Shown: positions 7,993 through 54,231 of the stretch, piece after piece | Position numbering within the stretch: position 1 is the first letter of the stretch | Layout: each line of letters starts with the position of its first letter | Assembly (NCBI GenBank): GCA_002897915.1 | Contig: BDTS01000023.1 | Location: 1-54,231 of the forward strand | Reading direction: 5' to 3' | Source of the DNA: a bacterium BMS3Bbin09 | GTDB taxonomy: Bacteria; Nitrospirota; Thermodesulfovibrionia; UBA6902 | DNA length: 54,231 nt | The notes under the pieces: generated by a model | The model's input: the letters and a program-made list of their open reading frames with translations, nothing else | Told to the model about the DNA's origin: nothing | Database searches by the model: none | Translations under genes and position numbers: made by a program

Positions 7993-8910
7993 TTAAGCGA
8001 ACAGCCCCGTACTTAAATATCTGTCACCCCGATCAGGGAATATAACCACGACCTTTTTCTCTTTTCCAAGCTTCTTTGCTACCTTCAGCGCGGCCCATGC
8101 TGCGGCCCCTGAGGAGATGCCCGCGAGTATCCCTTCTTCCTTTGCAATGCGCTGAGACATGGCTGCCGCATCTTCATTGGTGACCGGTATGACCTCGTTG
8201 AAGATATCAGTATTCAGGACGCCGGGGAAAAATCCCGCCCCGATCCCAGCTATCTTGTGCGGGCCTGGTTCGCCTCCTGAGAGAACGGGTGAGGCAGCGG
8301 GTTCGACAGCTGCTATCCATATGTCTGCATTATTAGACTTAAGGACCTCTCCTGTGCCTGTTATCGTGCCTCCTGTGCCTACACCAGCAACAAAACCGTC
8401 GATCTCTGCTCCGAGTGCTTTCATGATCTCCACGGCGGTCGTCTTTCTGTGTATCTCGGGATTTGCGGGATTCTCGAACTGCATCGGCATGAAATAGTCA
8501 GGATTCTTTTTAAATATCAGTTCAGCCTCTTCAACCGCTCCCATCATACCTTTGGGTCCGGGAGTAAGCACCAGTTCCGCGCCGAATGCCTGGAACATCT
8601 GTCTCCTTTCAAGTGACATGGTCTCTGGCATTGTAAGGATCAGACGGTATTTCCTGACAGCGGAGATGAGTGCGAGCCCGATCCCCGTATTCCCGCTTGT
8701 AGCTTCGATGATCGTTCCCCCTGGCTTAAGCTTTCCTTCACGTTCGGCTGCTTCTATCATCGAGAGGGCGATCCTGTCCTTGACAGAGCCTCCGGGGTTG
8801 GATCCTTCAAGCTTTGCCCATATATCGGCGTCTTCCGGACCTGGGATCCTGTTCAATTTCACAATTGGTGTGTTGCCTATAAGTTTGATAATATTTTCAA
8901 GTGGCTGCAT
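7993..8910 (-). CDS. cysK: Cysteine synthase A (O-acetylserine sulfhydrylase)
   Basis: [11 protein letters not shown] (PLP lysine), [35 protein letters not shown]. Confidence 0.95.
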
Positions 8911-8954
8911 CTGAATACTCCATTAAGATGATCTTATATGTCAGGGTTGTTCCT

Positions 8955-10436
8955 TTAGACCCCGTCGTACTTCTTCATGCGCCAGTATTCGGCGTTTAGT
9001 GTTTCGACGATATAGTCCATTCTTCCTGTCCTGAAGTACTGTCCGATGGCTGTCAGGAATATCTTCGGGTTCCTGAAGAAGATCGTGGAGAGTATCGAGT
9101 AAAAGCTTATGTTGCCTGTACCCCTGAGATAGTTCTTCCTGAAGAAGGCGTTCTGCATCTTTTTCCGGATATCTCTCAGTTCTTCCTTGCCAAAGGTTAT
9201 GGCCATCAGGGGCAGTTCAGGCTGCCTGTGTGCCCATATTTCAGAGAACGGGATATTGGGGTCGAGCCATCCTTCCTGGATTGCCTTTTCGTATATCGCT
9301 GTCCCGGGATATGGTGTAAGGAAATAAAAGGCGGTGTAATCCGCGTCAATATCTTTTGCGACCTGGAAACTCTCGTCTATGTCTGCTTTGGTCTCCTCCG
9401 GGCTACCGATAATGAAAGTTGCGAGCGTTCTGATATCGAGTTCTTTGCAGAGTTTGAAGGATTTTTTGATCTGTGATTTCCTGTCACCGGCTCCACCCTT
9501 GCCCAGCACCTTGAGTATCTTTTCGGAGCCGCTTTCGACACCGAAGTCGAGCTGGACAAGTCCTGACTTCTTCATGAGAGTCATAAGTTCAATGTCTGTC
9601 TGGTCGACCCTTGACTGGCCTGCCCACTTGATGGGGAGGTTCCGTTTTGTCAGTTCCTCACAGTATTCTCTGACCCATTTAGGGCTTAGTGTAAAGGTGT
9701 CGTCACAGTAATAAATGCCTGTTATACCGAAGTTCTTATAAAGATGCTCTATCTCGTCTACAACGTTCTTTACTGAGCGTCTCCTTGTCTTCCTTCCAAA
9801 GATGTTGTGGCTGCCGCAATAGATGCACTGAAAGGGACAGCCCCTGCTGGTAACGATGGTTGTCTGATTGCTGTCCGCGTGTCCCCTGATGATGCCGGGT
9901 GGTTTGAGATATGGTTTCATATCAATAAGGTGTCTTGCCGGGAACGGTATCGTATCCAGATCCTTTATCATCTCGCGTCTTTCGTTTACAATTATCTCCT
10001 CGTCTTTCCGGTACATTACGCCGTTGACATCGGTAAGGTCTTTGCCGCTACCGAGTCTTTCGCAGACCTCGATCATGGTATCTTCACCTTCTCCAACGAC
10101 TATGAAATCGAGATCAAAGGCTTCCAGTGTCTCTTTTGGTTTAACGCTGGTATGTACGCCGCCCGAGCAGTATATCTTGTCAGGCATGGCCTCTTTAAGG
10201 CTCTTGGTGAAATTGAAAGCCCTCTGGTAACCGACAGTCAGGAAGCTTAAAGCTATAAGGTCAGGATTGAATTCCTTAATATCATTTATGATCGTGGACT
10301 GGTATTCCGGATCCGCGTCATATATTTGCACGGTATGCCCCGCCTTTTCGAGAACCGCGGCGATATACATAAGCCCTAACGGAGGAACAACATTATTTCC
10401 GTCTAAAACTTGCGCATTGACTAAGGTGACTCTCAT
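8955..10436 (-). CDS. Cobalamin-binding radical SAM protein (class B methyltransferase-like)
   Basis: PPLGLMYIAA, GGVH, GEGE, TSRGCPFQCIYC (CxxxCxxC), GVESGS, TPYPGT. Confidence 0.92.
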   Translation of the reverse strand: MRVTLVNAQVLDGNNVVPPLGLMYIAAVLEKAGHTVQIYDADPEYQSTIINDIKEFNPDLIALSFLTVGYQRAFNFTKSLKEAMPDKIYCSGGVHTSVKPKETLEAFDLDFIVVGEGEDTMIEVCERLGSGKDLTDVNGVMYRKDEEIIVNERREMIKDLDTIPFPARHLIDMKPYLKPPGIIRGHADSNQTTIVTSRGCPFQCIYCGSHNIFGRKTRRRSVKNVVDEIEHLYKNFGITGIYYCDDTFTLSPKWVREYCEELTKRNLPIKWAGQSRVDQTDIELMTLMKKSGLVQLDFGVESGSEKILKVLGKGGAGDRKSQIKKSFKLCKELDIRTLATFIIGSPEETKADIDESFQVAKDIDADYTAFYFLTPYPGTAIYEKAIQEGWLDPNIPFSEIWAHRQPELPLMAITFGKEELRDIRKKMQNAFFRKNYLRGTGNISFYSILSTIFFRNPKIFLTAIGQYFRTGRMDYIVETLNAEYWRMKKYDGV

Positions 10437-10466
10437 GATCTTATACCTCTTTTCTTATCGGTAGCT

Positions 10467-12881
10467 TTATTTAACACAGGAGCAAGCGCAACTGACCTCA
10501 GCTGGTTTGCTGCCTTTCAATGTTATCGAATAAAACTGAATAAATTCAATTTTTTTGTATAAATAGTTTCTTTTCAATGTTACGTTTGGGAACCCGGCGC
10601 TTTCAGCTGCTTCTTTGAACCTTTTATCGGTCAAAGCTCCTGAAAGGCATGCGTTCCACATCTCTTTATCCCTCTTCAGGTATCCGGGAACGGGTTTGTC
10701 GGAAACAATATCAGAAATAATGAACCGGCCTCCAGGTTTTAATATTCGAAATATTTCGTCCATAACTTTAGTCTTGTCTTCAGTGAGATTGATAACACAG
10801 TTTGATATGACAAGGTCGACCGAATTATCGTCAACAGGAAGCTCCATGATGTTACCAGACCTGAATTCAACATTATGATAACCGAGGGCGTCTCCGACCT
10901 TTTTGGCGCTTTCACTTGCCTTTGCTACCATCTCGTCCGTCAGGTCAATGCCGATCACCCTGCCTTTTTTACCGAGTTTTCTTGCAGCGATAAAACAGTC
11001 TATCCCTCCGCCGGCCCCGAGATCGACTATAGTCTGTCCGGCTTTAATGGAAGCCAGTGCAGCCGGGTTGCCACAGCCGTATGAGACATCAAGTACCTCG
11101 TTGGGTATGTGAGCGAGGTCCTTCGGGTTATAGCCTGTTGGACAGTAGTATTCCGCTACAGGGGCATATGCAGCCTTTGAGAATTTCTTTTTTACCGTTT
11201 TTGTGACATGGCCTTTGATCTCCGGCTTGCATACATCTTCATCATCCTCGACATCGACCGACAGAACGCAGGAGCAGTGGTAGCATCCAACGTCAAAATT
11301 CTTGTCAATAGTCTTTAGCCCGGCGCCGAAATGCCCGGGAAGTTTTGAATCCATGGCGTTATAAATAGTGGGCGCTGAATATTCCCTGGTGTTCTGGGGT
11401 GCTACTGCCTCGGAGGCCAACTCCCATATAACGTCCTCGAACAGGGACTTGTAAGTCGAGCAATAGGGATCTTGAGCGGTGATCGAACCCTTTCCTGTGT
11501 CGACCTTGCTTGCGTAATAACTGTGGGATGTGCATCCGCCGCCGCAAAAATACTCGAGGTAACACTCACTGCATTCGGCCTTGTCCTGAACGCTGTTGTC
11601 ACGGCCTTTTTGCATTACCTTTGAATCGAGCCATATCTCTTTCAGGGATCTTTCCCTGACCGAACCGGCGTTAAAGTGCTTGTCGCCGTTCAAAGAGGCG
11701 CATGGGTAAACATTGCCGTCCGAATTGACGCAGACTTTTTCAAAACAGTTATTGCAGAGGTCGTTCTTTCTGCCCCTCTTGGTCCTGACCCTGACCTTTA
11801 ATGATTCGACGTTATCGAATATTATTTCTTTTTCCTTATATTCATTCTTGAGTTTTTTCATTGCCTTCGCGATATTGTCGGAAGGTACAAAGAGTTCGTT
11901 CATATGATCCACGCTCCGACCCTTTGCATGCATCCAGAGTACATTGTGTTCCTGTATGCCGAGCTTTGAGAGGAAACGTGAGGTCTTTGCTATATCTTTT
12001 TCGTTTAACTTGCTGATGGCTGTGGAGACAATGGGGATGATTCCTATGCTCATGAGCTTTTTGATACCGTCGACCGCCGCGTCAAAGCTGCCTTTTCCGC
12101 GCAGCTTGTCATGGATCTCTGCGTTCTGACCTTCCAGACTGACCTGAATCAAAAGCCTGGGGCTGACCAGCTTTTTTAATTCAGCGATCTTTCTGTTATC
12201 AAAGAGGGTAGCGTTTGTAAGCACAATAACCTCACGCTTCTTTGTTTTAGTAATGTATTTTATAAGGTCGAATATGCCTTCCTTGATAAAGGGCTCGCCG
12301 CCTGTGATATAAAAGCGCTTGACTCCGAGCTTAATAGATTCGTCCACGACCTTTTTGAATTCATCCACGGTCAATTCATTCTTAAGTACCTTCCCCGCAT
12401 CCACAAGGCAGTGTTTGCACCTGAGGTTGCAGGCCAGAGTAAAATAGATCCAGAGTTCTTCCAGTTTTTTCGGGGCGATCACCTTGCTTCTGCCCGGGTA
12501 AACAGGTGTCTCGAATTTATCTGCTGATACGAACTCGAGCATTCTTGTTGCAGTGAGGAATTCAGAGATCTCCTGTTTCGCTTTTTTCTTGTCAGGGAGA
12601 TTGTGTTTTTTGATTATAGCATTTTGAATATCGGACAATGAATTCTTACCGTTACAGAGCTTAAGGACTTCCGCGCCCGTATGGTTCACGCTGACCCAAT
12701 TGGGTGACTTGGGGTCAATAAACAACGATATGCCTTTTTTCTGTTTTTTGATATGGTCAGGAGAGAAGAGGATATCATCAGGGTCAAAAGGTTTAAGCTC
12801 CGGATCAATGATCTTCCATTCTTTCAGTTCATATTGCTTGAGTCTGTCTTCTCTTCCTGTATCGCAACAACTTTTTGCCAT
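10467..12881 (-). CDS. Fusion: PqqD/RRE-like N-domain + radical SAM/SPASM + ArsM-type SAM methyltransferase
   Basis: VNHTGAEVLKLCNG (PqqD-like); CNLRCKHC and TGGEP; GNVYPC...CSECYLEYFCGGGC..DPYC (SPASM); SYGCGNP, DLGAGGGID, ISNCVINL, WNACLSGA (ArsM). Confidence 0.88.
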   Translation of the reverse strand: MAKSCCDTGREDRLKQYELKEWKIIDPELKPFDPDDILFSPDHIKKQKKGISLFIDPKSPNWVSVNHTGAEVLKLCNGKNSLSDIQNAIIKKHNLPDKKKAKQEISEFLTATRMLEFVSADKFETPVYPGRSKVIAPKKLEELWIYFTLACNLRCKHCLVDAGKVLKNELTVDEFKKVVDESIKLGVKRFYITGGEPFIKEGIFDLIKYITKTKKREVIVLTNATLFDNRKIAELKKLVSPRLLIQVSLEGQNAEIHDKLRGKGSFDAAVDGIKKLMSIGIIPIVSTAISKLNEKDIAKTSRFLSKLGIQEHNVLWMHAKGRSVDHMNELFVPSDNIAKAMKKLKNEYKEKEIIFDNVESLKVRVRTKRGRKNDLCNNCFEKVCVNSDGNVYPCASLNGDKHFNAGSVRERSLKEIWLDSKVMQKGRDNSVQDKAECSECYLEYFCGGGCTSHSYYASKVDTGKGSITAQDPYCSTYKSLFEDVIWELASEAVAPQNTREYSAPTIYNAMDSKLPGHFGAGLKTIDKNFDVGCYHCSCVLSVDVEDDEDVCKPEIKGHVTKTVKKKFSKAAYAPVAEYYCPTGYNPKDLAHIPNEVLDVSYGCGNPAALASIKAGQTIVDLGAGGGIDCFIAARKLGKKGRVIGIDLTDEMVAKASESAKKVGDALGYHNVEFRSGNIMELPVDDNSVDLVISNCVINLTEDKTKVMDEIFRILKPGGRFIISDIVSDKPVPGYLKRDKEMWNACLSGALTDKRFKEAAESAGFPNVTLKRNYLYKKIEFIQFYSITLKGSKPAEVSCACSCVK

Positions 12882-13129
12882 TTAATACTCCGATAAATAT
12901 ATTTACTTTTAAAATTATAGAGTTATGTATATATGCCAGGTATAAACTGTGTCTTTCTTTGGAACCTATATAACATAACGACTATTAGCATGGATATTAT
13001 ACCGTTTAATAAATATTTTTAACAATTGTGTGAAGTGGCAAGTAAAATGTCATAATGATCGAGCAACTTAAATGTTGTATATGTGACGTAATTGTTGCTA
13101 TGTGCTGCGCCTGATGGTACTATTATCTC

Positions 13130-14662
13130 ATGTCCAATAACAATAAAACAGACCCGATAGTCCAGAAGAACAGGGAGTTGACCGCAATTCTGGAGGTCAG
13201 CAGGGTGCTTACAACATCCTTTGCCCTTGAGAAGAATCTCCTCTTGGTAATGTCGACCCTCGGGAGCCTGCTCGAGATGCAGAGGGGGTGCGTTTTTCTG
13301 CATGATCCTTTATCAGGGGAGATGCGTATTGTAGCGGCCCACGGGCTCGCAAAACATAATATTGAAAAGGGGAAGTACCGTATCGGTGAAGGGATCGTGG
13401 GCAGGGTCCTTGAGAAAAAGAAACCGATGGTAATACCGAACATCGGGGAGGAACCGCTTTTTTTGAACAAGACAGGTTCAAGGCCCGCAAAGGACGGGAT
13501 ATCCTTCCTCTGTGTTCCCATAATGCTGAAGAACGAAGGGCTGGGGGTGTTGAGTGTGGACAGGATATACTCGGAGGAGCAGGGCAATGTGGAGGACGAC
13601 CTCAGGGTACTGACGATCGTTGCCTCATTGATAGCCCAGTTCATTAAGCTCTGGGAGAGCTACGAAAAGATAGAGAAGGAAAAAGAGAGCCTCAAGAGGG
13701 AGCTGAAGGGCAAATACAGCATCGAGAACATAATAGGCTTGTCAGACAGGATGCAGGAGGTCTTTGAGTCGATCCACCGGGTCGCCCCCTCAAAGGCGAC
13801 CGTACTCCTTCGGGGTGAGAGCGGCACCGGCAAAGAGCTCGTTGCAAAGGCCGTGCATTATATGAGTCCCAGGAGCAAGGGCCCCTTTATTAAATTCAAT
13901 TGCGCGTCCATTCCTGAGGGTCTGCTTGAGTCCGAGCTCTTCGGTCATGAAAAGGGTGCATTCACCGGCGCGATAGCTGCCCGGAAGGGCAAGTTCGAGC
14001 TTGCGGACAAAGGCACGATATTTCTCGACGAGATAGGCGACCTTCCGCTTACCCTGCAACCAAAGATATTGAGGGTCCTTCAGGAGAGAGAATTCGAGCG
14101 TATCGGCAGCGAGAAGACGATGAAGGTCGATGTCAGGATAATAGCCGCGACAAGCAGGAACCTCGAGACACTGGTCTCACAGGGAAAGTTCAGAGAGGAC
14201 CTTTATTTCAGGCTCAATGTCATACCGCTCTTTCTGCCGCCGCTGAGTGAAAGGGAAGAGGACATCCCTGTCCTGATCGATTTCTTCCTGGTTAAGTTCA
14301 ATGAAGAAAATAATCGTTCGGTCTGTCTTGATAAAGGCGCCTTGCAGGTATTTTTAAATTATAACTGGCCCGGAAATGTCAGAGAGCTTGAAAATACCAT
14401 CGAGAGACTTGTTATTATGTCGGGCTCGGAAAGGGTCAAGGCATCGGAACTGCCTGTTAATCTGAGCATCCGGCGGGCAAAGGTATCTATGAAGTCCGAG
14501 TCGTTGACAGCCAATGTCGAGGATATTGAAAAAGAGAATATAATCGGCGCCCTTGAGAAGACCGGCTGGATACAGGCAAAGGCCGCCAGGCTCCTCGGGA
14601 TCACACCACGGCAGATAGGGTATAAGATCAAAAAGTACGGAATAGAAGAAAAGGTTTTGTAG
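13130..14662 (+). CDS. GAF-domain sigma-54-dependent activator (NifA-like architecture)
   Basis: N-terminal GAF (GEGIVG, SFLCVPI), [31 protein letters not shown]-terminal Fis HTH; no nif genes in the window. Confidence 0.92.
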
Positions 14663-14687
14663 GGGCAGGTTTCAAACCTGCCCTTAC
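14659..14687. repeat. GTAG-type REP-like palindrome, copy 1
   Basis: GTAGGGGCAGGTTTCAAACCTGCCCTTAC; overlaps the stop codons of both convergent genes; second copy at 26782. Confidence 0.85.
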
Positions 14688-17302
14688 GTTTTAATTAAAA
14701 AATTATCCTTCACAAACTTTATCTCACCCTCACGGCTTTTTATCTGTCGTTCAAGTCTCGCATCAAGTATCGCAGTCAATATCTCTTTGAAAAGCGGGCC
14801 CGGCGGGTATCCCATTGACTGAAGGTCCTTTCCTGTAAGCTCTGGTTCGATGTTCCTCAGTTTTGTCAGGTAAATTGAGATGGCCTGCTTGCGGTCCTTA
14901 TGTTTGCTCTTTGCCATCATAAATAATACCGTATGAAGGTTAAGCGGAGAGAGCGTGTAATAGATATCCTTCTGGCTTGCGTCCTTAAGCTTGCTGAGCG
15001 CGGTCTTTGAATCTTTGATACCCACAAGCATCTCTTTGCTCACGTTTTTCGGGACCTGAAGTCTCCGCAGGGCCTCGGGCCTTTCCGAAGTGGTAAGTTC
15101 ATCAAGCAGCGCCATAAGAAAGAGATGTGATTTGTGAAGCTCTTCTTCAAAGAAGAGAAGTTTGAACCATGAAAATGTTTCCTGTATGGAAACGAAATTA
15201 TCTTTAAGGGTCTTTGTTATTGCAAGGCCGGGATGTATGAATTTCAGAAGATCCAGTTCAGCGAGCCTTTTGATAGCGTTGACAGGCTCTGTCTCCGTAA
15301 AGAGGAGGTTGAGCTCATCGTACATCCTGGTGCCGGAGAGCTTTTCGAACAACTTCATGCGCACGGCGGTCTTTATTAGCTTCAATGTGTGTTTGCTTAT
15401 CTTAAAGCCGAACCTCTCGGAGAACCTTATCGCCCTGAATGCCCTGGTCGGGTCTTCGATAAAGCTGAGATTGTGGAGTATTCGGATCGTTTTTTCCTTT
15501 ATGTCCCTCTGTCCGCCGTAATAATCAATGAGCTGTCCGAAGTGTTCGGGGTTCAGTTTTATTGCCAGTGTATTAATGGTGAAATCTCTCCGGTAGAGGT
15601 CCTTTTTTATGGATGAGGTTTCGACTGTAGGCAGTGCGGCCGGAGATTCGTAATACTCTGTCCTTGAGGTTGCAACGTCGAGCTTCAGAAACTCGGTTAT
15701 TACGACTGCTGTACCGAACCTTTTGTGGCTCTTGACCTTCAGGTTGAGTTTTTTACCGAGTGCCTGCGCGAACTTTATTCCGTCGCCCTCAATGACAAGG
15801 TCAATATCAAGGTTTGTTTCGCCGCGTATGATGTCCCTGACCGAACCGCCTACAAGATAGGCTGAGTAGCCAAGTTCATCCGCTATCTGCCCGGACAATT
15901 TAAGCAGGTTTAATATCTCGCGCGGGAAGATGGATCTTATCCCGGAGGACATGTTCTTGCCTATTGACGCTTTTTCTGTTATCTTCTCATTTGTACTTAC
16001 TCTGCTTTTTCTGAGCAGACTCTCATAAAGTGACCTTAAGAGGTCAGTCCTTGTTATTGCACCCGTTATTTGGCCGTTCTCGACCACTGGCATGAACCTC
16101 TGGTTCTGCTCTATCATCATTAACTCGACCCTGCTTATCGATGTTAAAGGAGTTACCGAAGGCGTGTCGGTTGTGCAGAATTCTGTGACTTTGCTTTTAC
16201 CGAAGCCGTGGAAAAGGGCCTTTTCAACAGCTTCTCTTGAGAGAAGGCCGTAAAGGGTTTTTTGCTTCAGGACCGGCAGGACATTTACCCCGTATTGTGT
16301 CATTGTCTTTTCAGCTGTCTTTATCGTATGGTTCCAGGGGATGCTTTTAACAGGACTCGTCATTATGTCTTTTGCTGTTTTCGAGGGCCGTATCTTCTTT
16401 TTCAGTGTAACCAGTAGTCTGCTTTCCACCTCTTCAAGCGAGATGTTTTTCATAGCAGCTGACGATGCGTTAGGATGCCCGCCGCCGCCGAGTGGTTTCA
16501 ATATTTCGGATACATCCACCTCGGACGTATGGCTCCTTGCAATTATCTGGACATTTTCTTCCATCATTACAAGCAGGAAGACCACATCTACATCGTCAAT
16601 TTCTCGTATCTTATGCGCCAGAAAAGCGATGTCTCCGATATACTTTTCCCTTGAGGCCATGGCGATCTTTATCCTTATGTCCTGGACCAGGTGGTCCTTT
16701 GCAGAATGGACCAGTTCGTTGAGCAGGTCTATTTCATCGGCACTCAGTTCTTTGGTGATAAAGCTTGAGACTATTTTTAGATTGGCCCCTTTTTTAAGAA
16801 GGTAGGCAGCGGCGATCAGTTCCCTCGTTGTTGTGGAAGGGAAGAGTAGCGAGCCTGTTTCTTCATATATCCCAAGCATTAATATTGTTGCTTCTGCCGG
16901 GGATATGTATATCTTGTCTTTCTGCAGCATCTCAGTAAAAAGTGTGGTTGTCGAGCCAAGCGTCTCAACGACCTCTAATTGTCCCCGAATGTCATTATTG
17001 GAGAACGGGTGGTGATCGTAAATATGGACCGCCACTCCCTTCTTGTCCAGTATCTCCGAGAACTTGCCGATTCTCCCGGGTTTCTTTGTGTCCACCAAAA
17101 TTAGGCGCGTGATCGTCTGGATGTCGATATCCCTGATCTTCCTGATGTCCAGTTCGGGCTGCATAGTGGCAAGGAAGTCACGCACGCTCTTTTCCTGTGA
17201 GCCCGGGAATACGAGGACCGCGTCAGGATAATACTTTTTTGCAGCGACCATTGAGGCGAGGGAGTCGAAATCGGAATTCATATGAGATGTTATCACGTCC
17301 AT
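14684..17302 (-). CDS. DHH/DHHA1-CBS-tRNA nucleotidyltransferase (CCA- or A-adding enzyme)
   Basis: DFDSLAS, YDHH, GGGHP, paired CBS domains, VGGSVRD..DIDLV, DLYRRDFTIN, EDPTRAFRAIRF. Confidence 0.92.
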   Translation of the reverse strand: MDVITSHMNSDFDSLASMVAAKKYYPDAVLVFPGSQEKSVRDFLATMQPELDIRKIRDIDIQTITRLILVDTKKPGRIGKFSEILDKKGVAVHIYDHHPFSNNDIRGQLEVVETLGSTTTLFTEMLQKDKIYISPAEATILMLGIYEETGSLLFPSTTTRELIAAAYLLKKGANLKIVSSFITKELSADEIDLLNELVHSAKDHLVQDIRIKIAMASREKYIGDIAFLAHKIREIDDVDVVFLLVMMEENVQIIARSHTSEVDVSEILKPLGGGGHPNASSAAMKNISLEEVESRLLVTLKKKIRPSKTAKDIMTSPVKSIPWNHTIKTAEKTMTQYGVNVLPVLKQKTLYGLLSREAVEKALFHGFGKSKVTEFCTTDTPSVTPLTSISRVELMMIEQNQRFMPVVENGQITGAITRTDLLRSLYESLLRKSRVSTNEKITEKASIGKNMSSGIRSIFPREILNLLKLSGQIADELGYSAYLVGGSVRDIIRGETNLDIDLVIEGDGIKFAQALGKKLNLKVKSHKRFGTAVVITEFLKLDVATSRTEYYESPAALPTVETSSIKKDLYRRDFTINTLAIKLNPEHFGQLIDYYGGQRDIKEKTIRILHNLSFIEDPTRAFRAIRFSERFGFKISKHTLKLIKTAVRMKLFEKLSGTRMYDELNLLFTETEPVNAIKRLAELDLLKFIHPGLAITKTLKDNFVSIQETFSWFKLLFFEEELHKSHLFLMALLDELTTSERPEALRRLQVPKNVSKEMLVGIKDSKTALSKLKDASQKDIYYTLSPLNLHTVLFMMAKSKHKDRKQAISIYLTKLRNIEPELTGKDLQSMGYPPGPLFKEILTAILDARLERQIKSREGEIKFVKDNFLIKT

Positions 17303-22568: not shown

Positions 22569-23984
22569 ATGGCAAAAGAAGTCATATTAGAAAATAGTCA
22601 GGGTATGAAAGGATTTTCAGTGCTCGTTATCGAGGACAATACCCTTTCGTTAAAAGAGACTGTGACTGCCCTTGAGAAGGCTGGCGCGGAGGTCTTCAAT
22701 GTCCCGGACTCTGCCCATGCAGCGGGACTGCTGCTTCACGAGCGTATTGATGTGATAATCGGAACTCTCGACCTTGTCGACGAACAGTGTATCGAGGTTA
22801 TAAAGAACTATAAGGCTCGCATGCCAAAAGCCCTTTTTTATGTGCTTACCGGGCAGGAATATGATTCGGTCGAGATATCGCAGGAATCGGTAAGGCTTGT
22901 CATAGACGATTATATAAAGAAGCCGCTTGATGTTGACCGTTTTGCGGGCATGATCGCGGCCAGCATAGGCAGGCCGGACGGGGACAAGTCACTCGCGGTT
23001 GCAGACCCCCTGGTCAGGAAGGTAAAACCATATTTTCTGTTCCGTTCCCCTGTCATGCGCCGGACACTTGCGGATCTTCCCCAGATATCGATGTCTGACC
23101 AGACAGTATTGATAACAGGGGATACAGGCACAGGCAAGGAGATAATTGCCCGTGCCATCCATGTGCTGAGTAGCCGCGCCTCGGGCCCTTTTGTGCCGAT
23201 CAACTGCGGGGCCATCCCGGAGAGCCTTATCGAAGGGGAGCTCTTCGGCCATGAAAAGGGCGCGTTCACCGGGGCCGTAAAGACCAGGAGGGGGAAATTT
23301 GAGACTGCGCATAATGGTACGCTCTTTCTGGACGAGATCGGGGATATGCCGCTTAATCTCCAGGTGCGTCTGCTCCGCGTGCTTGAGGAAGGGCAGATAC
23401 ACCGCATAGGCAGTGAGGCCCCCGTTTCCATCAATGTGCGTGTTATAGGGGCCTCCAACATTGACCTTAAAAAGGCCGTTGACGACGGGCTTTTCCGTGA
23501 TGACCTCTATTACCGTATCAACGTGCTCCGCCTTGAGCTGCCGCCGCTGAACAAACGGATCGAAGATATCTCGCTACTCGCGGTCCACTTCCTGGAAAGG
23601 GCGTTTGCCGAGATGGGGCGCTTAAAGCCTTATCCAAGCCTATCGTCAGAGACAATCTATATCCTTGAACAATGCCCGTGGAAAGGGAATGTCCGTGAAC
23701 TCAGGAATGTCATGACGCGGGTCGCTACACTGCTTCCCGGGGACACGAACCAGATATTCCCTTTTCATATACTGCCCCATCTTGACAGGACGGACAAGGT
23801 TCCTGTAAATTCTTCCAATAAGAAGGAAGCAGAGGGCGTTTTTATCTGGTCAGGGACAAACCTTAAAGAGGTTGAAGAGATGCTTATCAATAAGACACTG
23901 AAAACAACCGGCGGGAACAGGACGCAGGCAGCCAAACTGCTCGGTATCAGCCTCCGTACACTTCGGAGGAAGCTGAATAAATGA
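22569..23984 (+). CDS. Sigma-54-dependent activator with atypical receiver domain
   Basis: REC-like N-terminus, GDTGTGKE, GAFTGA, WKGNVREL, Fis HTH. Confidence 0.9.
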   Translation: MAKEVILENSQGMKGFSVLVIEDNTLSLKETVTALEKAGAEVFNVPDSAHAAGLLLHERIDVIIGTLDLVDEQCIEVIKNYKARMPKALFYVLTGQEYDSVEISQESVRLVIDDYIKKPLDVDRFAGMIAASIGRPDGDKSLAVADPLVRKVKPYFLFRSPVMRRTLADLPQISMSDQTVLITGDTGTGKEIIARAIHVLSSRASGPFVPINCGAIPESLIEGELFGHEKGAFTGAVKTRRGKFETAHNGTLFLDEIGDMPLNLQVRLLRVLEEGQIHRIGSEAPVSINVRVIGASNIDLKKAVDDGLFRDDLYYRINVLRLELPPLNKRIEDISLLAVHFLERAFAEMGRLKPYPSLSSETIYILEQCPWKGNVRELRNVMTRVATLLPGDTNQIFPFHILPHLDRTDKVPVNSSNKKEAEGVFIWSGTNLKEVEEMLINKTLKTTGGNRTQAAKLLGISLRTLRRKLNK

Positions 23985-49607: not shown

Positions 49608-52478
49608 ATGAATATAACTGAATACCATGCAAAATATTACGCTTATGAATTAACTAAACGCTACTCTTCCGACAATCTGGAAAAGCTGATAACTCCTTTA
49701 ATGGATGCTCAAGTTGATTTAAATCCTCACCAGGTTGAAGCTGCTCTTTTTGCCTTTAAATCACCGCTATCCAAGGGAGCTCTTCTTGCCGATGAAGTTG
49801 GTCTTGGTAAGACAATTGAGGCAGGGATTCTAATATCACAGAAATGGGCTGAACGTAAAAGAAAAATCCTCATTATTCTTCCATCTAATCTCAGAAACCA
49901 ATGGAATCAGGAGCTGTATGACAAGTTCTTTCTGACTTCAACTATTCTTGAATCAAAGTCATTTAATGCTCATCTCAAGATAAGTAACGAAAATCCATTT
50001 GACAGAGATGAGATTGTACTTTGCTCGTATTATTTTGCAAGAAACAAAGCAGAATATATTAGAAATGTAAGATGGGACTTAGTAGTTATTGATGAGGCTC
50101 ATAGACTGAGAAACGTCTATAAGCCCTCAAATAAGATCGCTAAGGCTATACAGGAGGCAATTTCGTCATATCCCAAGGTGCTTCTTACCGCAACGCCTCT
50201 ACAAAATACATTGCTGGAACTTTATGGTTTGATCAGTTTTATTGATGATTTTACATTTGGAGATATCAAAAGCTATAAGGCACAATTCTCTAAACTAACT
50301 AACGAAGATAACTTTGACGACCTTAAAGCCCGGCTTGCTCCGGTATGTAAAAGAACCCTCAGAAGGCAGGTGCTTGAATATATACGCTACACAAACAGAA
50401 TACCGATAACTCAGGAGTTTATTCCTACTGAAGAGGAGCAAGAACTTTATGATGTTGTTTCTGGTTATTTACGACGGCAAAACTTATATGCTTTGCCGGC
50501 AAGCCAACGGCATCTCATAACTCTTATTCTTCGTAAACTTTTATCATCATCCACATTCGCTATAGCAGGGACTTTAACCTCTCTTCTTTACAGGTTAAAT
50601 GCAAAGCTGAAACGGGTTAAAGTTAAGCCCGAAATGGACGATGACCTCGGGCAGGATTTTGAATCCTATGAAGAGCTTAAAGATGAATGGCAGGAGAATG
50701 GTGACACACCGAGTGACGAAAATATAGTAACTGAAGAGGAACTTGAAGCTATAGGAGAAGAAATTAATGACTTGCAAAGGTTTAGGGATTTAGCCGAATC
50801 AATAACACATAACGCCAAAGGGAAAGAACTGCTGATTGCTCTGAAAACAGGTTTTAGCAAGGCAAAAGAATTAGGTGCAAATGAAAAAGCAGTTATTTTT
50901 ACTGAATCCCGAAGAACTCAGGAATACCTGCTTTCAGTGCTTTCAAATACAGAGTATAAGGGCCGCATTGTTCTTTTTAACGGATCAAATAACGATGAAA
51001 TATCCAAAGCTATATATAAAGAATGGTTTGATTTTCATAATGGAACAGATAAAGTAACAGGCTCAAAAACAGCAGATATACGATCTGCTATTGTAGATTG
51101 CTTTAAAAACAGGGCCACGATCATGATAGCAACAGAAGCTGCAGCCGAGGGGATCAATCTTCAGTTCTGCTCATTGGTTATTAACTATGACCTTCCGTGG
51201 AATCCTCAAAGGATCGAGCAGAGAATAGGCAGGTGTCATAGGTATGGTCAGAAATATGATGTTGTTGTGGTGAACTTCCTGAACAAAAAGAATGCCGCTG
51301 ATGTCAGGGTGCATGAACTCCTTTCTGAGAAGTTCAAGTTGTTCAGCGGTGTTTTTGGTGCGAGCGATGAGATTTTGGGAAGCATTGAATCAGGTGTAGA
51401 TTTTGAGAAGAGAATTGCCCGGATATATCAGGAATGCAGAACAGAGGAAGAAATACAGGCTTCTTTTGATGCCCTTCAAAAGGACATGGAGATGGAAATT
51501 GATGAGAAAATGAAGTTGACAAGGAAGAACCTCCTTGAAAACTTTGATGAAGAAGTTCACGAAAAATTAAAAGTGAATCTGGCTGAAAGCAAAGAATACT
51601 TGTCAAAGCATGAAAACTGGCTATGGCAAATAACAAGGTATTATCTTGAACCTTATGCTGACTTTATAACAGGCGATCATTCCTTTACTTTGAGACAAAA
51701 CCCTTTTCCTGAAGAGAAAATACATAAAGGTCCTTATAAGGTAGGGAAGAATATTGAGGATGCAAATATATATAGAATAGGACATCCTCTGGCACAGAGA
51801 ATAATTAATTCATGCAAATCAAGCGATCTGTTATTGCAGCAACTCACATTCAATTATTCAGACACAGCAAAGAAAATATCTATCTTAGATCCACTGATAG
51901 GTAAATCAGGATGGTTGTCTTTAGTAACTCTGACAATTGATTCCTTTGAGACAGAAGATTATATATTGTTTTGCGGGATTACAGATAACGGTAAAGAATT
52001 AGACATAGAGCAGGTCCAAAGACTTTTTTCTTTATCAGCCTCTGTTACCCCTTTCATTGATAAAATGCCTGATAATGTCTCTGATAATATTAACAAAATG
52101 ATTCACAGACAGGAGATGGATATATTACAATCAAATGCAGAGCACAATGGCAGTTTCTTTGATGCTGAATTGGAAAAGCTGGATAAGTGGGCTGAAGACA
52201 TCAAGAACAGCATTGAAATTGAATTGAAACAGCTTGATAAGGACATCAAAGCCCGTAAAACAGAAGCGAAGAAGATACTTAAACTTGATGAGAAAGTAAA
52301 GGCACAAAAAGAGATAAAGGACATGGAGAAGAAGCGGAATACCCTGAGGCAGAACCTTTATCAGGCGCAGGATGAGGTAGATGATAAGAAGGAACGGCTC
52401 ATTGAGGAAATTGAGTCAAGATTGAAACAGAAAATAGAGAAGGCAGAACTTTTTACTATTATATGGAGTGTTATATAA
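49608..52478 (+). CDS. SNF2-family helicase/ATPase with C-terminal coiled coil (restriction-modification associated type)
   Basis: LNPHQ, LADEVGLGKT, DEAH, LTATPLQN, TEAAAEGINLQ, YDLPWNP.RIEQRIGRCHR; more AT-rich than the flanking core genes. Confidence 0.92.
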   Translation: MNITEYHAKYYAYELTKRYSSDNLEKLITPLMDAQVDLNPHQVEAALFAFKSPLSKGALLADEVGLGKTIEAGILISQKWAERKRKILIILPSNLRNQWNQELYDKFFLTSTILESKSFNAHLKISNENPFDRDEIVLCSYYFARNKAEYIRNVRWDLVVIDEAHRLRNVYKPSNKIAKAIQEAISSYPKVLLTATPLQNTLLELYGLISFIDDFTFGDIKSYKAQFSKLTNEDNFDDLKARLAPVCKRTLRRQVLEYIRYTNRIPITQEFIPTEEEQELYDVVSGYLRRQNLYALPASQRHLITLILRKLLSSSTFAIAGTLTSLLYRLNAKLKRVKVKPEMDDDLGQDFESYEELKDEWQENGDTPSDENIVTEEELEAIGEEINDLQRFRDLAESITHNAKGKELLIALKTGFSKAKELGANEKAVIFTESRRTQEYLLSVLSNTEYKGRIVLFNGSNNDEISKAIYKEWFDFHNGTDKVTGSKTADIRSAIVDCFKNRATIMIATEAAAEGINLQFCSLVINYDLPWNPQRIEQRIGRCHRYGQKYDVVVVNFLNKKNAADVRVHELLSEKFKLFSGVFGASDEILGSIESGVDFEKRIARIYQECRTEEEIQASFDALQKDMEMEIDEKMKLTRKNLLENFDEEVHEKLKVNLAESKEYLSKHENWLWQITRYYLEPYADFITGDHSFTLRQNPFPEEKIHKGPYKVGKNIEDANIYRIGHPLAQRIINSCKSSDLLLQQLTFNYSDTAKKISILDPLIGKSGWLSLVTLTIDSFETEDYILFCGITDNGKELDIEQVQRLFSLSASVTPFIDKMPDNVSDNINKMIHRQEMDILQSNAEHNGSFFDAELEKLDKWAEDIKNSIEIELKQLDKDIKARKTEAKKILKLDEKVKAQKEIKDMEKKRNTLRQNLYQAQDEVDDKKERLIEEIESRLKQKIEKAELFTIIWSVI

Positions 52479-52481
52479 AGG

Positions 52482-52946
52482 ATGACTGAATCAGAGAGAA
52501 TTAAAATGCTCATAAAAGAAGGCGAAGGCTTAACGGTCGAGTTCAAGGAGAGATACACTCCCAGGATTGATCGTGACATTGTGTCGTTTGCCAATTCAAA
52601 AGGCGGGCGGTTGCTGCTCGGTGTTGATGATAGAGGAAAAGAACCTGTCTTTGAGATGGATTTATTTTTCAGGGCCATTTTTTATCGTGATCCAAAGTAT
52701 TCTCTTAAAACATACAAGGGCAGAGGAAAAGGGACGGAAGAAACTACCCAGAAAACTACCCGGAAAACTACCCGGAAAATAATAGATGCCATTACCAAAA
52801 AAGCAGATATTACTCAAAAAGAACTTGCTGCTTTTATTGGAATAACTGAAGACGGAGTAAAATACCATATAACAAGGCTTAAGAGAAAAGGAATCCTTAA
52901 ACGAATAGGCCCGGACAAAGGCGGGCATTGGGAGATAGTTGGATGA
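52482..52946 (+). pseudogene. AlbA_2(Schlafen)-HTH protein with apparent large in-frame internal deletion
   Basis: EGEGLTVEFKE..IVSFANSKGG.LLLGVDD joined directly to a C-terminal wHTH (ITQKELA...KRIGPDKGGHW); the middle domains are absent. Confidence 0.65.
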
Positions 52947-53029
52947 GGGTGTCAACTCGGCGATTCTGTTTTGCCTTGTCATTTCGACAACAGGAGAAAT
53001 CTTGAATCTTTATTTGCTTGTTCAACACT

Positions 53030-53131
53030 ATGAAGAAAAAACAGAAATTAGAACTCACATGGATAGGAAAAGACGAGCAGTCGAAGCTTGAGTCGAGGAT
53101 GTTGATCGAAGACCCGGAGCAGCGTAGCTGA
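53030..53131 (+). pseudogene. N-terminal stub of a type III R-M Mod methyltransferase
   Basis: MKKKQKLELTWIGKDEQSKLESRMLIEDPEQRS*; KLELTWIGK is the characteristic start of Mod proteins in SNF2-associated loci. Confidence 0.65.
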
Positions 53132-53143
53132 CATAACTGAAAT

Positions 53144-54231
53144 ATGAAATTTATTGAATCCGAGACATTGGAATTAAAAAAATCCACCGCTGAGATTAAA
53201 GAGGCGATCATATCTATAGCGGCAATCCTCAATAAACATCAACACGGCGAATTATTTTTTGGGATTAAAAACAACGGCGCTGTTGCAGGCCAGAACGTAT
53301 CAGACAAAACAATACGTGATGTATCAAAATCTATTGCAGACCATATTGAACCCAAAATCTATCCTCACATAAACCGTATCGAGATAGACGGCAAAATATG
53401 CATTAGAGTCCGGTTTAAGGGTAACGATATTCCCTATTTTGCATATGGCAGGGCACATATAAGAGTGGCGGATGAAGACCGGCAATTAAGCGCTAAGGAA
53501 CTCGAAGGGCTGATTCTCGGAAAGAATAAAGATAAATTAAGATGGGATACCGAAATCTGCAAAGAAGCAGAGATCACAGACATAAGCGCAGTAAAGGTTA
53601 AATCTTTTCTGAAAGGCTTGGGGCTGAAATATGACACTGTACGCAATGCGCTTGAGAAATTAAAGCTCACGCATGAAGGTAAGCTCCTCAATACGGCCGT
53701 AATCCTGTTCGCCAAAAAACCGCAGGCTTTTTTCCCGAATGCCCGTCTAAGATGCGCTGTTTTCGGCACAACAGACACAACGTTTACCATTGATATGCAG
53801 GATATTGAAGGAGATATCTTCTACCTGATCCAAAAAGCTGAAGGATATATCCTGAAAAATATACATATCGGTATGAAGCTTGAGGGGTTAAAAAGGATAG
53901 ATGTGCCTGAAATTGACAAGGAGGCATTCAGGGAAGCAATAATCAATGCCTTCTGCCACAGGGATTACCGGGAGTTTGATTCCGTTAATATTGCTGTCTT
54001 TAAAGACAGAGTTGAAATAAGGAGTCCGGGACTGCTTTATGGCGGCCTGACCATAGAGGCCATCAGGACAAAGATGGTTTCGGAGAGAAGAAATGAGCTA
54101 ATTGCAGAGATGCTTCATCGTGTTCATTTCATAGAGAAATGGGGACGGGGAATCAGGCTGATTCTCTCCAAAGAACCGGATGCCAAGTTCAGTGAAGTAG
54201 GAACCAAGTTTATCACCATATTTAAGCGGAA
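53144..54231 (+). CDS. AlbA_2 + HATPase_c_4 (RecG-like C-terminal) putative DNA-binding protein, 3' truncated by window
   Basis: MKFIESETLELKKST..ILNKHQHGELFFGI; REAIINAFCHRDY; DRVEIRSPG; RNELIAE; IEKWGRGI. Not in the ORF track because it runs off the end. Confidence 0.88.
   Translation, partial: MKFIESETLELKKSTAEIKEAIISIAAILNKHQHGELFFGIKNNGAVAGQNVSDKTIRDVSKSIADHIEPKIYPHINRIEIDGKICIRVRFKGNDIPYFAYGRAHIRVADEDRQLSAKELEGLILGKNKDKLRWDTEICKEAEITDISAVKVKSFLKGLGLKYDTVRNALEKLKLTHEGKLLNTAVILFAKKPQAFFPNARLRCAVFGTTDTTFTIDMQDIEGDIFYLIQKAEGYILKNIHIGMKLEGLKRIDVPEIDKEAFREAIINAFCHRDYREFDSVNIAVFKDRVEIRSPGLLYGGLTIEAIRTKMVSERRNELIAEMLHRVHFIEKWGRGIRLILSKEPDAKFSEVGTKFITIFKR

Follow-up and report, generated by a model that had tools for sequence, protein, structure and literature searches.

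The DNA analyzed here, referred to as the window, is the whole 54,231-nucleotide stretch from position 1 to position 54,231 of contig BDTS01000023.1 in assembly GCA_002897915.1 (bacterium BMS3Bbin09), a genome that is 92% complete. The list of its open reading frames (ORFs) contains a row of three genes on the reverse strand and a fourth gene that diverges from them on the forward strand. The three are a fusion gene of 804 amino acids that combines PqqD-like, radical S-adenosylmethionine (SAM), SPASM and ArsM-type methyltransferase domains (10467..12881), a gene for a 493-amino-acid B12-binding radical SAM enzyme of the class B type recognized by its Pfam and NCBIfam domains (8955..10436), and cysK, encoding cysteine synthase A (7993..8910); the divergent gene encodes a NifA-family activator with GAF, sigma-54 AAA+ and helix-turn-helix (HTH) domains (13130..14662). 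A gap of 30 bp (10437–10466) separates the fusion from the B12 gene and one of 44 bp (8911–8954) separates the B12 gene from cysK, and the spacer between the fusion and the activator is 248 bp long. An earlier reading of this DNA, made from its letters and ORFs (the sequence-only reading), had given the same four sets of coordinates, the same two gaps and a divergent activator, with which the ORF list agrees, and its gene identities are upheld by Pfam and NCBIfam scans. It went on to treat all four genes as one system; the comparisons described below argue for a two-gene cassette, with the fusion and B12 genes as the two parts of its core, and for a role in the chemistry of arsenic or a related metalloid.

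The features of the fusion all lie on the reverse strand and are arranged as follows. The N-terminal tail carries a vicinal cysteine pair at residues 5–6 (12864..12869, from alignment) and is followed by a PqqD-like domain of the type known as a RiPP (a peptide that ribosomes make and that is modified after translation) recognition element, or RRE, at residues 55–111 (12549..12719; PF05402, 28 bits against a cut-off of 23.4). The radical SAM core occupies residues 145–304 (11970..12449; PF04055, 90.6 bits), with its CX3CX2C motif formed by C151, C155 and C158, and the SPASM domain occupies residues 376–441 (11559..11756; PF13186, 39.8 bits) and has a complete set of cysteines. A short motif, H-C-S-C-V-L-S, identified by alignment at residues 535–541 (11259..11279), marks the junction with the second module, an ArsM-type SAM methyltransferase domain at residues 546–797 (10491..11246), which was recognized by matches to solved structures and to Pfam (Methyltransf_31, 119.5 bits) and is itself followed by a cysteine-rich C-terminal tail.

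The conservation of these features was followed in 14 close homologues and in a set of more distant fusions. There are more than 120 full-length homologues of the fusion at 64–93% identity, and those with names come nearly all from Nitrospirae/Thermodesulfovibrionia metagenome-assembled genomes and carry generic names only. A search of 1.84 billion cluster representatives gave 1,701 matches at E ≤ 1e-30; among the best 150 of these 1,701, at least 33 match across both modules in one stretch, at 28–45% identity. The methyltransferase domain has arsenite methyltransferases as its best solved relatives (5evj, 122.7 bits; 4kw7/4fr0, 109.9 bits) and has the class I SAM-methyltransferase fold, with a D-L-G-A-G-G-G loop that is invariant in the close homologues. 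Its cysteines C603, C695 and C745, together with C580, align with cysteine-bearing stretches of the Cyanidioschyzon ArsM (4kw7), and we take the first three to be the equivalents of Cys72, Cys174 and Cys224 of the As(III) site of that enzyme, with an additional cysteine upstream. All four are invariant in the close homologues, and in the alignment of 33 distant fusions, which are 28–44% identical, C603, C695 and C745 reach at least 90% conservation. Radical SAM routes to a carbon–arsenic (C–As) bond are represented by ArsS, which transfers a 5′-deoxyadenosyl group, and by ArsL, which transfers an aminocarboxypropyl group. Among 301 genomes sampled from the phylum, the nearest relatives of the methyltransferase domain are ArsM genes at 48–54% identity, at least 18 of which lie within about 2 kb of ArsS as judged by their coordinates.

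The N-terminal half has a different set of matches. Among solved structures it comes closest to the thioether maturases CteB (5wgg, 56 bits over residues 82–459) and SkfB (6efn, 52 bits), and its match to the ArsS model TIGR04167 covers positions 3–148 only and reaches 76.9 bits against a cut-off of 300, with no DUF3641 domain detected by Pfam. C151, C155 and C158 of the radical SAM core are invariant in the 33 distant fusions. The SPASM cysteines are invariant in the close clade and are not conserved beyond the clade of the window and its nearest relatives, and the N-terminal pair behaves in a similar way, with C6 invariant and C5 at least 90% conserved in the 14 close homologues and the pair not conserved in the distant fusions.

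The junction motif is of particular interest as it recurs, as H-C-x-C-V-L-S, throughout the family: in the 33 distant fusions C538 is invariant and H535 is at least 90% conserved. Moreover, it is found at the ends of proteins that lack the methyltransferase. Stand-alone radical SAM/SPASM proteins of three genomes in another family of the phylum (G011, G001 and G020) terminate exactly in this motif, and five further stand-alone representatives have it at the C-terminus or no more than about 12 residues from the end. The G011 copy is 43% identical to residues 42–542 of the fusion and is without about 28 residues of the PqqD-like stretch. Cysteine-rich C-terminal tails are also present on many of the fusions. 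According to a preprint on ArsL, the C-terminal cysteine tail of that enzyme binds arsenite and is needed for formation of the C–As bond, and SAM cleavage survives removal of the tail (bioRxiv 10.1101/2024.02.01.577332). The junction motif recalls this tail, and by analogy we propose that it is a metalloid-binding tail of the radical SAM module that would hold arsenic.

The second gene of the cassette has the domains expected of a radical SAM enzyme that binds B12 (PF02310 B12-binding, 80.1 bits; PF04055 Radical_SAM, 74.7 bits), with the CX3CX2C motif present as CPFQCIYC and no cysteine tail. A search against solved structures found AprD4 (100.3 bits), TokK, TsrM and OxsB, all at low scores that give no functional assignment, and a protein atlas search found generic B12/radical SAM clusters only. 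Its association with the fusion is strict. Related loci were drawn from reference genomes (11), from the same family or order (6) and from a metagenome (one locus, L073). L008 and L011 each hold half of a single gene that is broken between two contigs of the same genome, so the number of independent loci is 17. The B12 gene adjoins the fusion in 15 of the 16 loci with downstream DNA. The exception, L003 (7908–10220), is in a genome deposited as a complete chromosome, where the fusion stops at residue 655 and ribosomal-protein genes come next; this break is probably an assembly join or a rearrangement. The distributions of the two genes also coincide: the fusion is present at 63% identity or more in 7 of the 301 genomes, and orthologues of the B12 enzyme at 71% identity or more are present in exactly those 7. 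The only other homologues of the B12 enzyme in the sample are in four genomes, at 38–39% identity (E ≤ 1e-80); the enzyme constitutes an orthologue group of its own, found only with the fusion. The pairing that the sequence-only reading had noticed is thus conserved, both in neighborhood and in distribution. Three of the four 38–39% identical homologues were examined, and lie in clusters with GT9/GT2 and PMT_2 membrane glycosyltransferases, a methyltransferase and further radical SAM genes, contexts that hint weakly at a sugar or lipid substrate.

The gene cysK is of a different nature. It is a clear cysteine synthase A by TIGR01139 (448.9 bits against an equivalog cut-off of 350.95) and is the only copy above the cut-off in this genome. 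It does not lie beside the cassette in any of the 12 related loci with at least 1.2 kb of sequence beyond the B12 gene; it is present in all 21 genomes of the order, and in six of six relatives it is on contigs other than that of the cassette. The genes that come next in several of the relatives are a PilZ gene, or a convergent M50 peptidase, a DUF2062 gene, an AIR-synthase-related gene and Lon. In the window, too, a PilZ gene comes after cysK, and cysK therefore has the look of an insertion specific to this lineage. The gene has a GGAG ribosome-binding site of its own, and there is no terminator-like hairpin in the 44-bp gap; as the gene is also on the same strand, read-through transcription from the cassette into cysK is possible. 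Judged by these comparisons, cysK is an ordinary neighbor lying outside the cassette, and its membership of the system has to be given up.

Much the same can be said of the activator. Its domains are GAF, Sigma54_activat and HTH_8, and its score against TIGR01817 (nifA) is 582.9 bits, above the cut-off of 528.85. A true NifA was considered and rejected, there being no nifH in the genome, in which the best NifH-family match is 32.8 bits over 43 of 271 positions (at 92% completeness). In 6 of the 14 loci whose upstream sequence extends for at least 1.2 kb, the activator lies next to the fusion in divergent orientation, and in four cassette-bearing relatives it is on another contig. Full-length orthologues of it at 50–84% identity are present in 102 of the 301 genomes, including whole families that are free of the cassette. 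A scan for the sigma-54 element TGGCAC-N5-TTGC, requiring at least 8 of 10 matches with the GG retained, covered 600 nucleotides of sequence upstream of the fusion (371 in L056), both in the window and at 16 loci; there is no −24/−12 match in the window and none on the strand of the fusion in the six activator-adjacent loci. The activator thus also appears to be an ordinary neighbor that is not dedicated to the cassette, and the adjacency in 6 of 14 loci, the presence in 102 as against 7 of the 301 genomes and the lack of an upstream element in these scans all tell against it as the regulator. The sequence-only reading had proposed checking whether its genes stay together around homologues of the fusion; when this was done, cysK and the activator were found to part from the other two, so the four-gene system does not hold.

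A candidate promoter of sigma-70-like type is present in the divergent spacer on the strand of the fusion (12996..13025), and consists of TTGTTA and TATAAT separated by 18 nucleotides, about 115 nucleotides upstream of the fusion start. It is a match to consensus only (10 of 12 positions), although within the spacer no stretch is better conserved than the TATAAT block when six loci are aligned, the mean column identity of the spacer being 42%. An Rfam scan of the whole window at gathering cut-offs found three tRNAs only, and no riboswitch in the leader of about 115 nucleotides. Nor is there a candidate for a precursor peptide: the spacers of the window and five aligned loci contain no conserved small ORF, the gaps within the operon are only 30 and 44 bp, and the only ORF of at least 20 amino acids that is contained entirely in the spacer on the fusion strand is a cysteine-free ORF of 22 amino acids that overlies the promoter region and is not conserved. 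ORFs of 85, 92 and 135 amino acids located downstream have no family match, and the 92-amino-acid ORF overlaps tRNA genes. The sequence-only reading had likewise seen no obvious precursor peptide, and had reported the window to be free of nif and ars genes; none was found among the 42 window ORFs scanned with Pfam and NCBIfam. From the neighborhood and distribution data on the B12 gene, cysK and the activator taken together, the functional unit is predicted to be two genes, not four, in a cassette that is restricted to one order-level clade of Thermodesulfovibrionia.

What this cassette may do is best approached through the wider family. Eighteen of the distant fusions were scanned with Pfam, of which nine have an extra C-terminal DUF5714 domain, a family-2 glycosyltransferase is present in one, and the methyltransferase comes first in two; L054, another relative, has an extra region of this kind at its C-terminus that matches the model of the metal-binding double selenoprotein MbdU. 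DUF5714 had no match in the genome of the window, but this is uninformative since the control also had no match anywhere. Several of the gene contexts are those of arsenosugar-type genes. The stand-alone genes of G011 and G001 overlap a DUF2064/CofC-like gene of the TIGR04282 type and a glycerophosphodiester phosphodiesterase gene, and in G001 a patatin-like phospholipase gene adjoins as well, and a separate ArsM gene is two genes away from a family-2 glycosyltransferase with a TIGR04283 match, with a gene for a VTT-domain membrane protein in between. TIGR04282-type genes adjoin three relatives (L074, L170, which is the G011 stand-alone copy, and L171), and L074, a 38%-identical fusion, is flanked by such a gene (188.5 bits, cut-off 134), by an NF004991 flavin adenine dinucleotide (FAD) oxidoreductase (769 bits) and by a PHO4 permease. 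Similar genes accompany other relatives, with a MerA-like gene, a PHO4-like permease and an NF004991-type oxidoreductase at L050, an NF004991-type oxidoreductase and DUF3179 at L089, and a patatin-like gene at L075; there is nothing arsenic-related in the contexts of L048, L049, L051, L052 and L053. Canonical ArsM–ArsS clusters found in the same scan (L078–L081 and L090) contain PHO4, DUF2064, DUF3179, redoxin and ArsR-type genes. One genome, G231, contains the distant fusion type three times (37% identity), each time in another context: at L050, at L052 and on contig C47.

The distribution of the family relative to ArsS is consistent with this picture. TIGR04283 is strong in 202 of the 301 genomes, ArsS is present in 190, and both are present in 182. 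The 13 genomes that have a distant or split fusion-type radical SAM protein all have TIGR04283, and only one of the 13 has ArsS; put the other way, 20 genomes have TIGR04283 without ArsS, and 13 of these have the fusion-type radical SAM protein. We argue from this complementarity that the tail-bearing module can take the place of ArsS. The argument transfers only in part to the clade of the window, since ArsS is also present in five of its seven cassette-bearing genomes; the clade is therefore not a simple ArsS replacement, which was considered for it and rejected, and its product is probably a different one. A maximum likelihood tree of the radical SAM module, built from 46 rows chosen from the 150 listed plus two loci and given a midpoint root for drawing only, places the clade of the window together with the intermediate fusions and the stand-alone proteins that bear the tail (support 96/94). 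The sister group consists of 12 radical SAM/SPASM rows without the tail and one fusion likewise without it (P0124), and two other tail-less rows are found among the distant fusions. Many of the phylum's ArsS genes contain a single in-frame TGA, in keeping with the known selenoprotein form of TIGR04167.

The genome of the window has arsenic genes of its own, on contigs other than that of the cassette. At a contig end (C51:1–3838) there are acr3 (374.8 bits), arsD, a HesB/IscA-like gene, and a 777-amino-acid ORF in which ArsA is joined to a C-terminal arsenate reductase domain. A stand-alone ArsM-like gene of 353 amino acids (C98:652–1713) scores 193 bits against NF008823, which is under the cut-off, and lies beside MiaB and MtaB genes. 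A pair of TIGR04282 and TIGR04283 'arsenosugar glycosyltransferase' genes is present on a third contig (C112:58–3629), and diverges from a gene of 236 amino acids that has no assignment and an NF004991-like FAD oxidoreductase (450 bits, under the cut-off). ArsS was not found in this genome by profile search, the best match to TIGR04167 being the fusion itself. This is weak evidence of absence and may reflect an assembly gap, because the genome is 92% complete and the TIGR04282 gene of the pair stands at the very end of its 5-kb contig; the missing sequence beyond it could contain ArsS.

Taking these data together, we propose, with a confidence that we would put at about even, that the cassette encodes an undescribed pathway for an organoarsenical, or for an organic compound of a closely related metalloid. 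What supports this is the way in which the domains are put together, the conserved cysteines, the two genes' strict pairing, and the contexts and distribution of the relatives; the arsenic genes elsewhere in the genome and the place of the clade in the tree also count in its favor. From these observations we infer the substrate, each chemical step and the product. Trivalent arsenic would be held by cysteines, namely the N-terminal vicinal pair, the H-C-x-C-V-L-S junction and the ArsM cysteines; the ArsM-type domain would methylate the arsenic using SAM; the radical SAM/SPASM module would form a C–As bond by radical chemistry; and the B12-type radical SAM partner would methylate or rearrange the carbon part, giving a product other than the usual arsenosugar precursor. 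The fusion family as a whole is best explained as a family of arsenic (metalloid) enzymes that join methylation to radical C–As chemistry. The clade of the window we read as a variant pathway with a different product, and not as a duplicate arsenosugar route, because it has an intact PqqD-like domain and SPASM clusters, a dedicated B12 partner, and genomes in which ArsS is also present. The sequence-only reading had suggested a methylated organoarsenic (or selenium or sulfur) amino acid made by four genes with the help of CysK; arsenic is the part of that suggestion best backed by the comparative evidence, and the four-gene system and the route through CysK fall away. A more specific and more tentative proposal, which we think rather less probable than the general one, is that the radical SAM/SPASM module with the H-C-x-C-V-L-S tail represents a third independent radical SAM solution to the C–As bond, that it stands in for ArsS in several lineages, and that here, fused to ArsM and paired with a B12 enzyme, it makes a new organoarsenical of anaerobic, sulfidic habitats. 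The product could then be an arseno-sugar or lipid that has been C-methylated or rearranged, or arsenic on a peptide presented by the PqqD-like domain.

Several observations weigh against an arsenic pathway and have to be set beside those in its favor. The best NCBIfam match of the fusion is the arsenite methyltransferase model NF008823, and at 252.4 bits (255.2 in a second scan) it falls short of the cut-off of 263, with a match that spans only positions 39–235 of 272 of the profile. The B12 enzyme is likewise under the cut-off of every curated subfamily (the best being BchE, 217.5 vs 481; HpnJ, 189.6 vs 578; ArsL, 55.5 vs 450). In the 16 close loci the cassette is never beside an ars, TIGR04282/3, PHO4 or oxidoreductase gene, and its neighbors are housekeeping genes. 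The close clade keeps an intact PqqD-like domain and the full set of SPASM cysteines, which are hallmarks of peptide maturases, and five of its seven genomes have ArsS as well. Finally, the genomes that were counted are related to one another, and the 13 with distant forms represent only about six families.

Some of these points have a ready explanation if the cassette matures a peptide or protein, with the PqqD-like domain docking a substrate encoded elsewhere, the SPASM module adding a thioether or C–C cross-link, the B12 enzyme methylating carbon, and the ArsM-like domain methylating a thiol or another nucleophile. The PqqD match above its cut-off, the complete SPASM cysteines and the kinship with CteB and SkfB all fit such a role, as do the best NCBIfam matches of the N-terminal half, which include StsB and WgkB, and those of the B12 enzyme to RiPP methylases (ApyD, 170.7 bits; TIGR03975, 95 bits), and the housekeeping surroundings and very strong conservation (63–93% identity) are as would be expected for a modifier of a core protein; the co-existence with ArsS in five of seven genomes also counts in its favor. 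However, every maturase model is far under its cut-off (StsB, 156.3 vs 625; WgkB, 141.8 vs 650; MftC, 133.2 vs 265), no conserved small ORF was found beside the cassette, where the spacers are poorly conserved (42%) or too short, and the metalloid-site cysteines of ArsM and the cysteine tail are conserved across the family, although methylation of a peptide would not need them. Moreover, the nearest stand-alone relatives are in operons of the TIGR04282 and phosphodiesterase type, not with peptides, and their PqqD-like stretch is shortened. We regard maturation of a peptide as unlikely, and give it the weight that it has because the PqqD-like domain is intact and no arsenic gene is beside the close cassette.

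A comparably small likelihood attaches to a small molecule that contains no arsenic, such as a membrane lipid or glycolipid, a cofactor, or a compound of sulfur, selenium, antimony or tellurium, for which the ArsM-type domain would have been recruited to act on some other soft nucleophile. The glycosyltransferase and PMT_2 clusters around the 38–39% identical homologues of the B12 enzyme (four homologues, three of them examined) are suggestive in this respect, together with the matches of that enzyme to HpnJ (189.6 bits) and to a lipid-biosynthesis B12 radical SAM family (161.8 bits) and the lack of a linked ars gene at the close cassette. ArsM-type domains are, moreover, present in selenoprotein families that have no assigned substrate, as judged from NCBIfam names and a review (PMC13188914). 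Against this are the links of the relatives to arsenosugar-type genes and the complementary distribution with ArsS, and there is no positive evidence for any particular other substrate. Least probable by far is the original model in which all four genes form one sigma-54 system and CysK carries out a beta-replacement to give a methylated organoarsenic (or selenium or sulfur) amino acid. The position of cysK 44 bp after the B12 gene on the same strand, with read-through possible, and the divergent activator at 6 of 14 loci are what speak for it, but the neighborhood data largely refute it, with cysK at none of 12 loci, present as a sole copy, found throughout the 21 genomes of the order and unlinked in six of six relatives, and with activator orthologues in 102 of 301 genomes, cassette-free families included, and no −24/−12 match; nothing was found in favor of an organoarsenic amino acid made by way of CysK.

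The remainder of the window is that of a core chromosome, with rpoD, dnaG, infB, truB, ispG and genes for pyruvate:ferredoxin oxidoreductase, and several other regions deserve mention. Immediately beyond the activator (14684–17302) is a gene for an A-adding tRNA nucleotidyltransferase of 872 amino acids with N-terminal DHH/DHHA1 and CBS domains (NF041569, 908 bits vs a cut-off of 1440), and a second, shorter CCA-type enzyme is encoded on contig C98 of the same genome. A second sigma-54 activator, of the response-regulator type, adjoins peptidoglycan hydrolase and deacetylase genes (22569–23984). The segment 36651–41733 contains an FmdE-like gene and genes for a 4Fe-4S subunit, an 836-amino-acid molybdopterin oxidoreductase and a NarJ-type chaperone; the best match of the oxidoreductase is PhsA (340 bits vs a cut-off of 694), and it scores only 170.6 bits against ArrA (cut-off 1600), so that neither match assigns it a substrate. 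The end of the window (49608–54229) is low in G+C (38–40%), contains a SNF2-family helicase gene and two genes with Schlafen/AlbA_2 domains, and may be a mobile or defence island.

To our knowledge, ArsS and ArsL are the only radical SAM enzymes known to forge C–As bonds, and both are from aerobes or phototrophs. If the proposal is correct, a widespread fused enzyme of anaerobic bacteria of the sulfate-reducer type would extend C–As radical chemistry, could account for organoarsenic species that await identification in groundwater, sediments and paddy soils, and would offer enzymologists a self-contained two-protein system. The fusion family bears the ArsM signature, and surveys that use arsM as a marker of simple methylation may consequently count it. 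The narrower practical message is that the cluster consists of two genes and not four. No description of a radical SAM/SPASM–ArsM fusion was found in full-text searches of the published literature, which did not cover subscription-only papers. The accessible portion of a 2026 review of prokaryotic selenoproteins describes ArsM-domain fusions with other partners and not the radical SAM/SPASM fusion (PMC13188914). What the comparisons add is the complementarity of the distant forms with ArsS and its failure in the clade of the window, the nature of the junction motif as a tail, and the demotion of cysK and the activator.

The cassette can be set against four known types of system, each of which it resembles in part. 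One is the arsenosugar pair of ArsS and ArsM, with which it shares the coupling of a radical SAM enzyme to an ArsM-type methyltransferase; the relatives of the fusion share TIGR04282-type, PHO4 and FAD oxidoreductase genes with it, no ArsS was found in 12 of the 13 genomes that have distant or split forms, and the methyltransferase domain is nearest to ArsS-linked ArsM. It differs in that the radical SAM part is of the SPASM type with a PqqD-like domain and no DUF3641, in that the two enzymes are fused and accompanied by a B12 partner, and in its co-existence with ArsS in five of seven genomes. The arsinothricin pair of ArsL (NF040542) and ArsM offers the precedent of a radical SAM enzyme with a short conserved cysteine tail that works with ArsM, although the tail motif and the fold class are different (the fusion being of the SPASM type), no ArsQ-type permease is linked, and the only ArsL-like fold class in the window is that of the B12 enzyme, which scores 55.5 bits against a cut-off of 450 and is without a cysteine tail. 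The radical SAM/SPASM maturases with an RRE (CteB, SkfB, AlbA and StsB) are matched by the N-terminal half of the fusion in its PqqD-like domain, CX3CX2C motif and full SPASM set, whereas the ArsM-type domain and cysteine tail, the precursor peptide that was not found, the scores under the cut-offs and the non-peptide contexts of the relatives set the fusion apart from them. Lastly, the partner gene has the B12-binding domain and radical SAM core of the class B enzymes (BchE, HpnJ, the PhpK-type P-methyltransferases and AprD4), but it is under all curated cut-offs and forms an orthologue group of its own that occurs only with the fusion.

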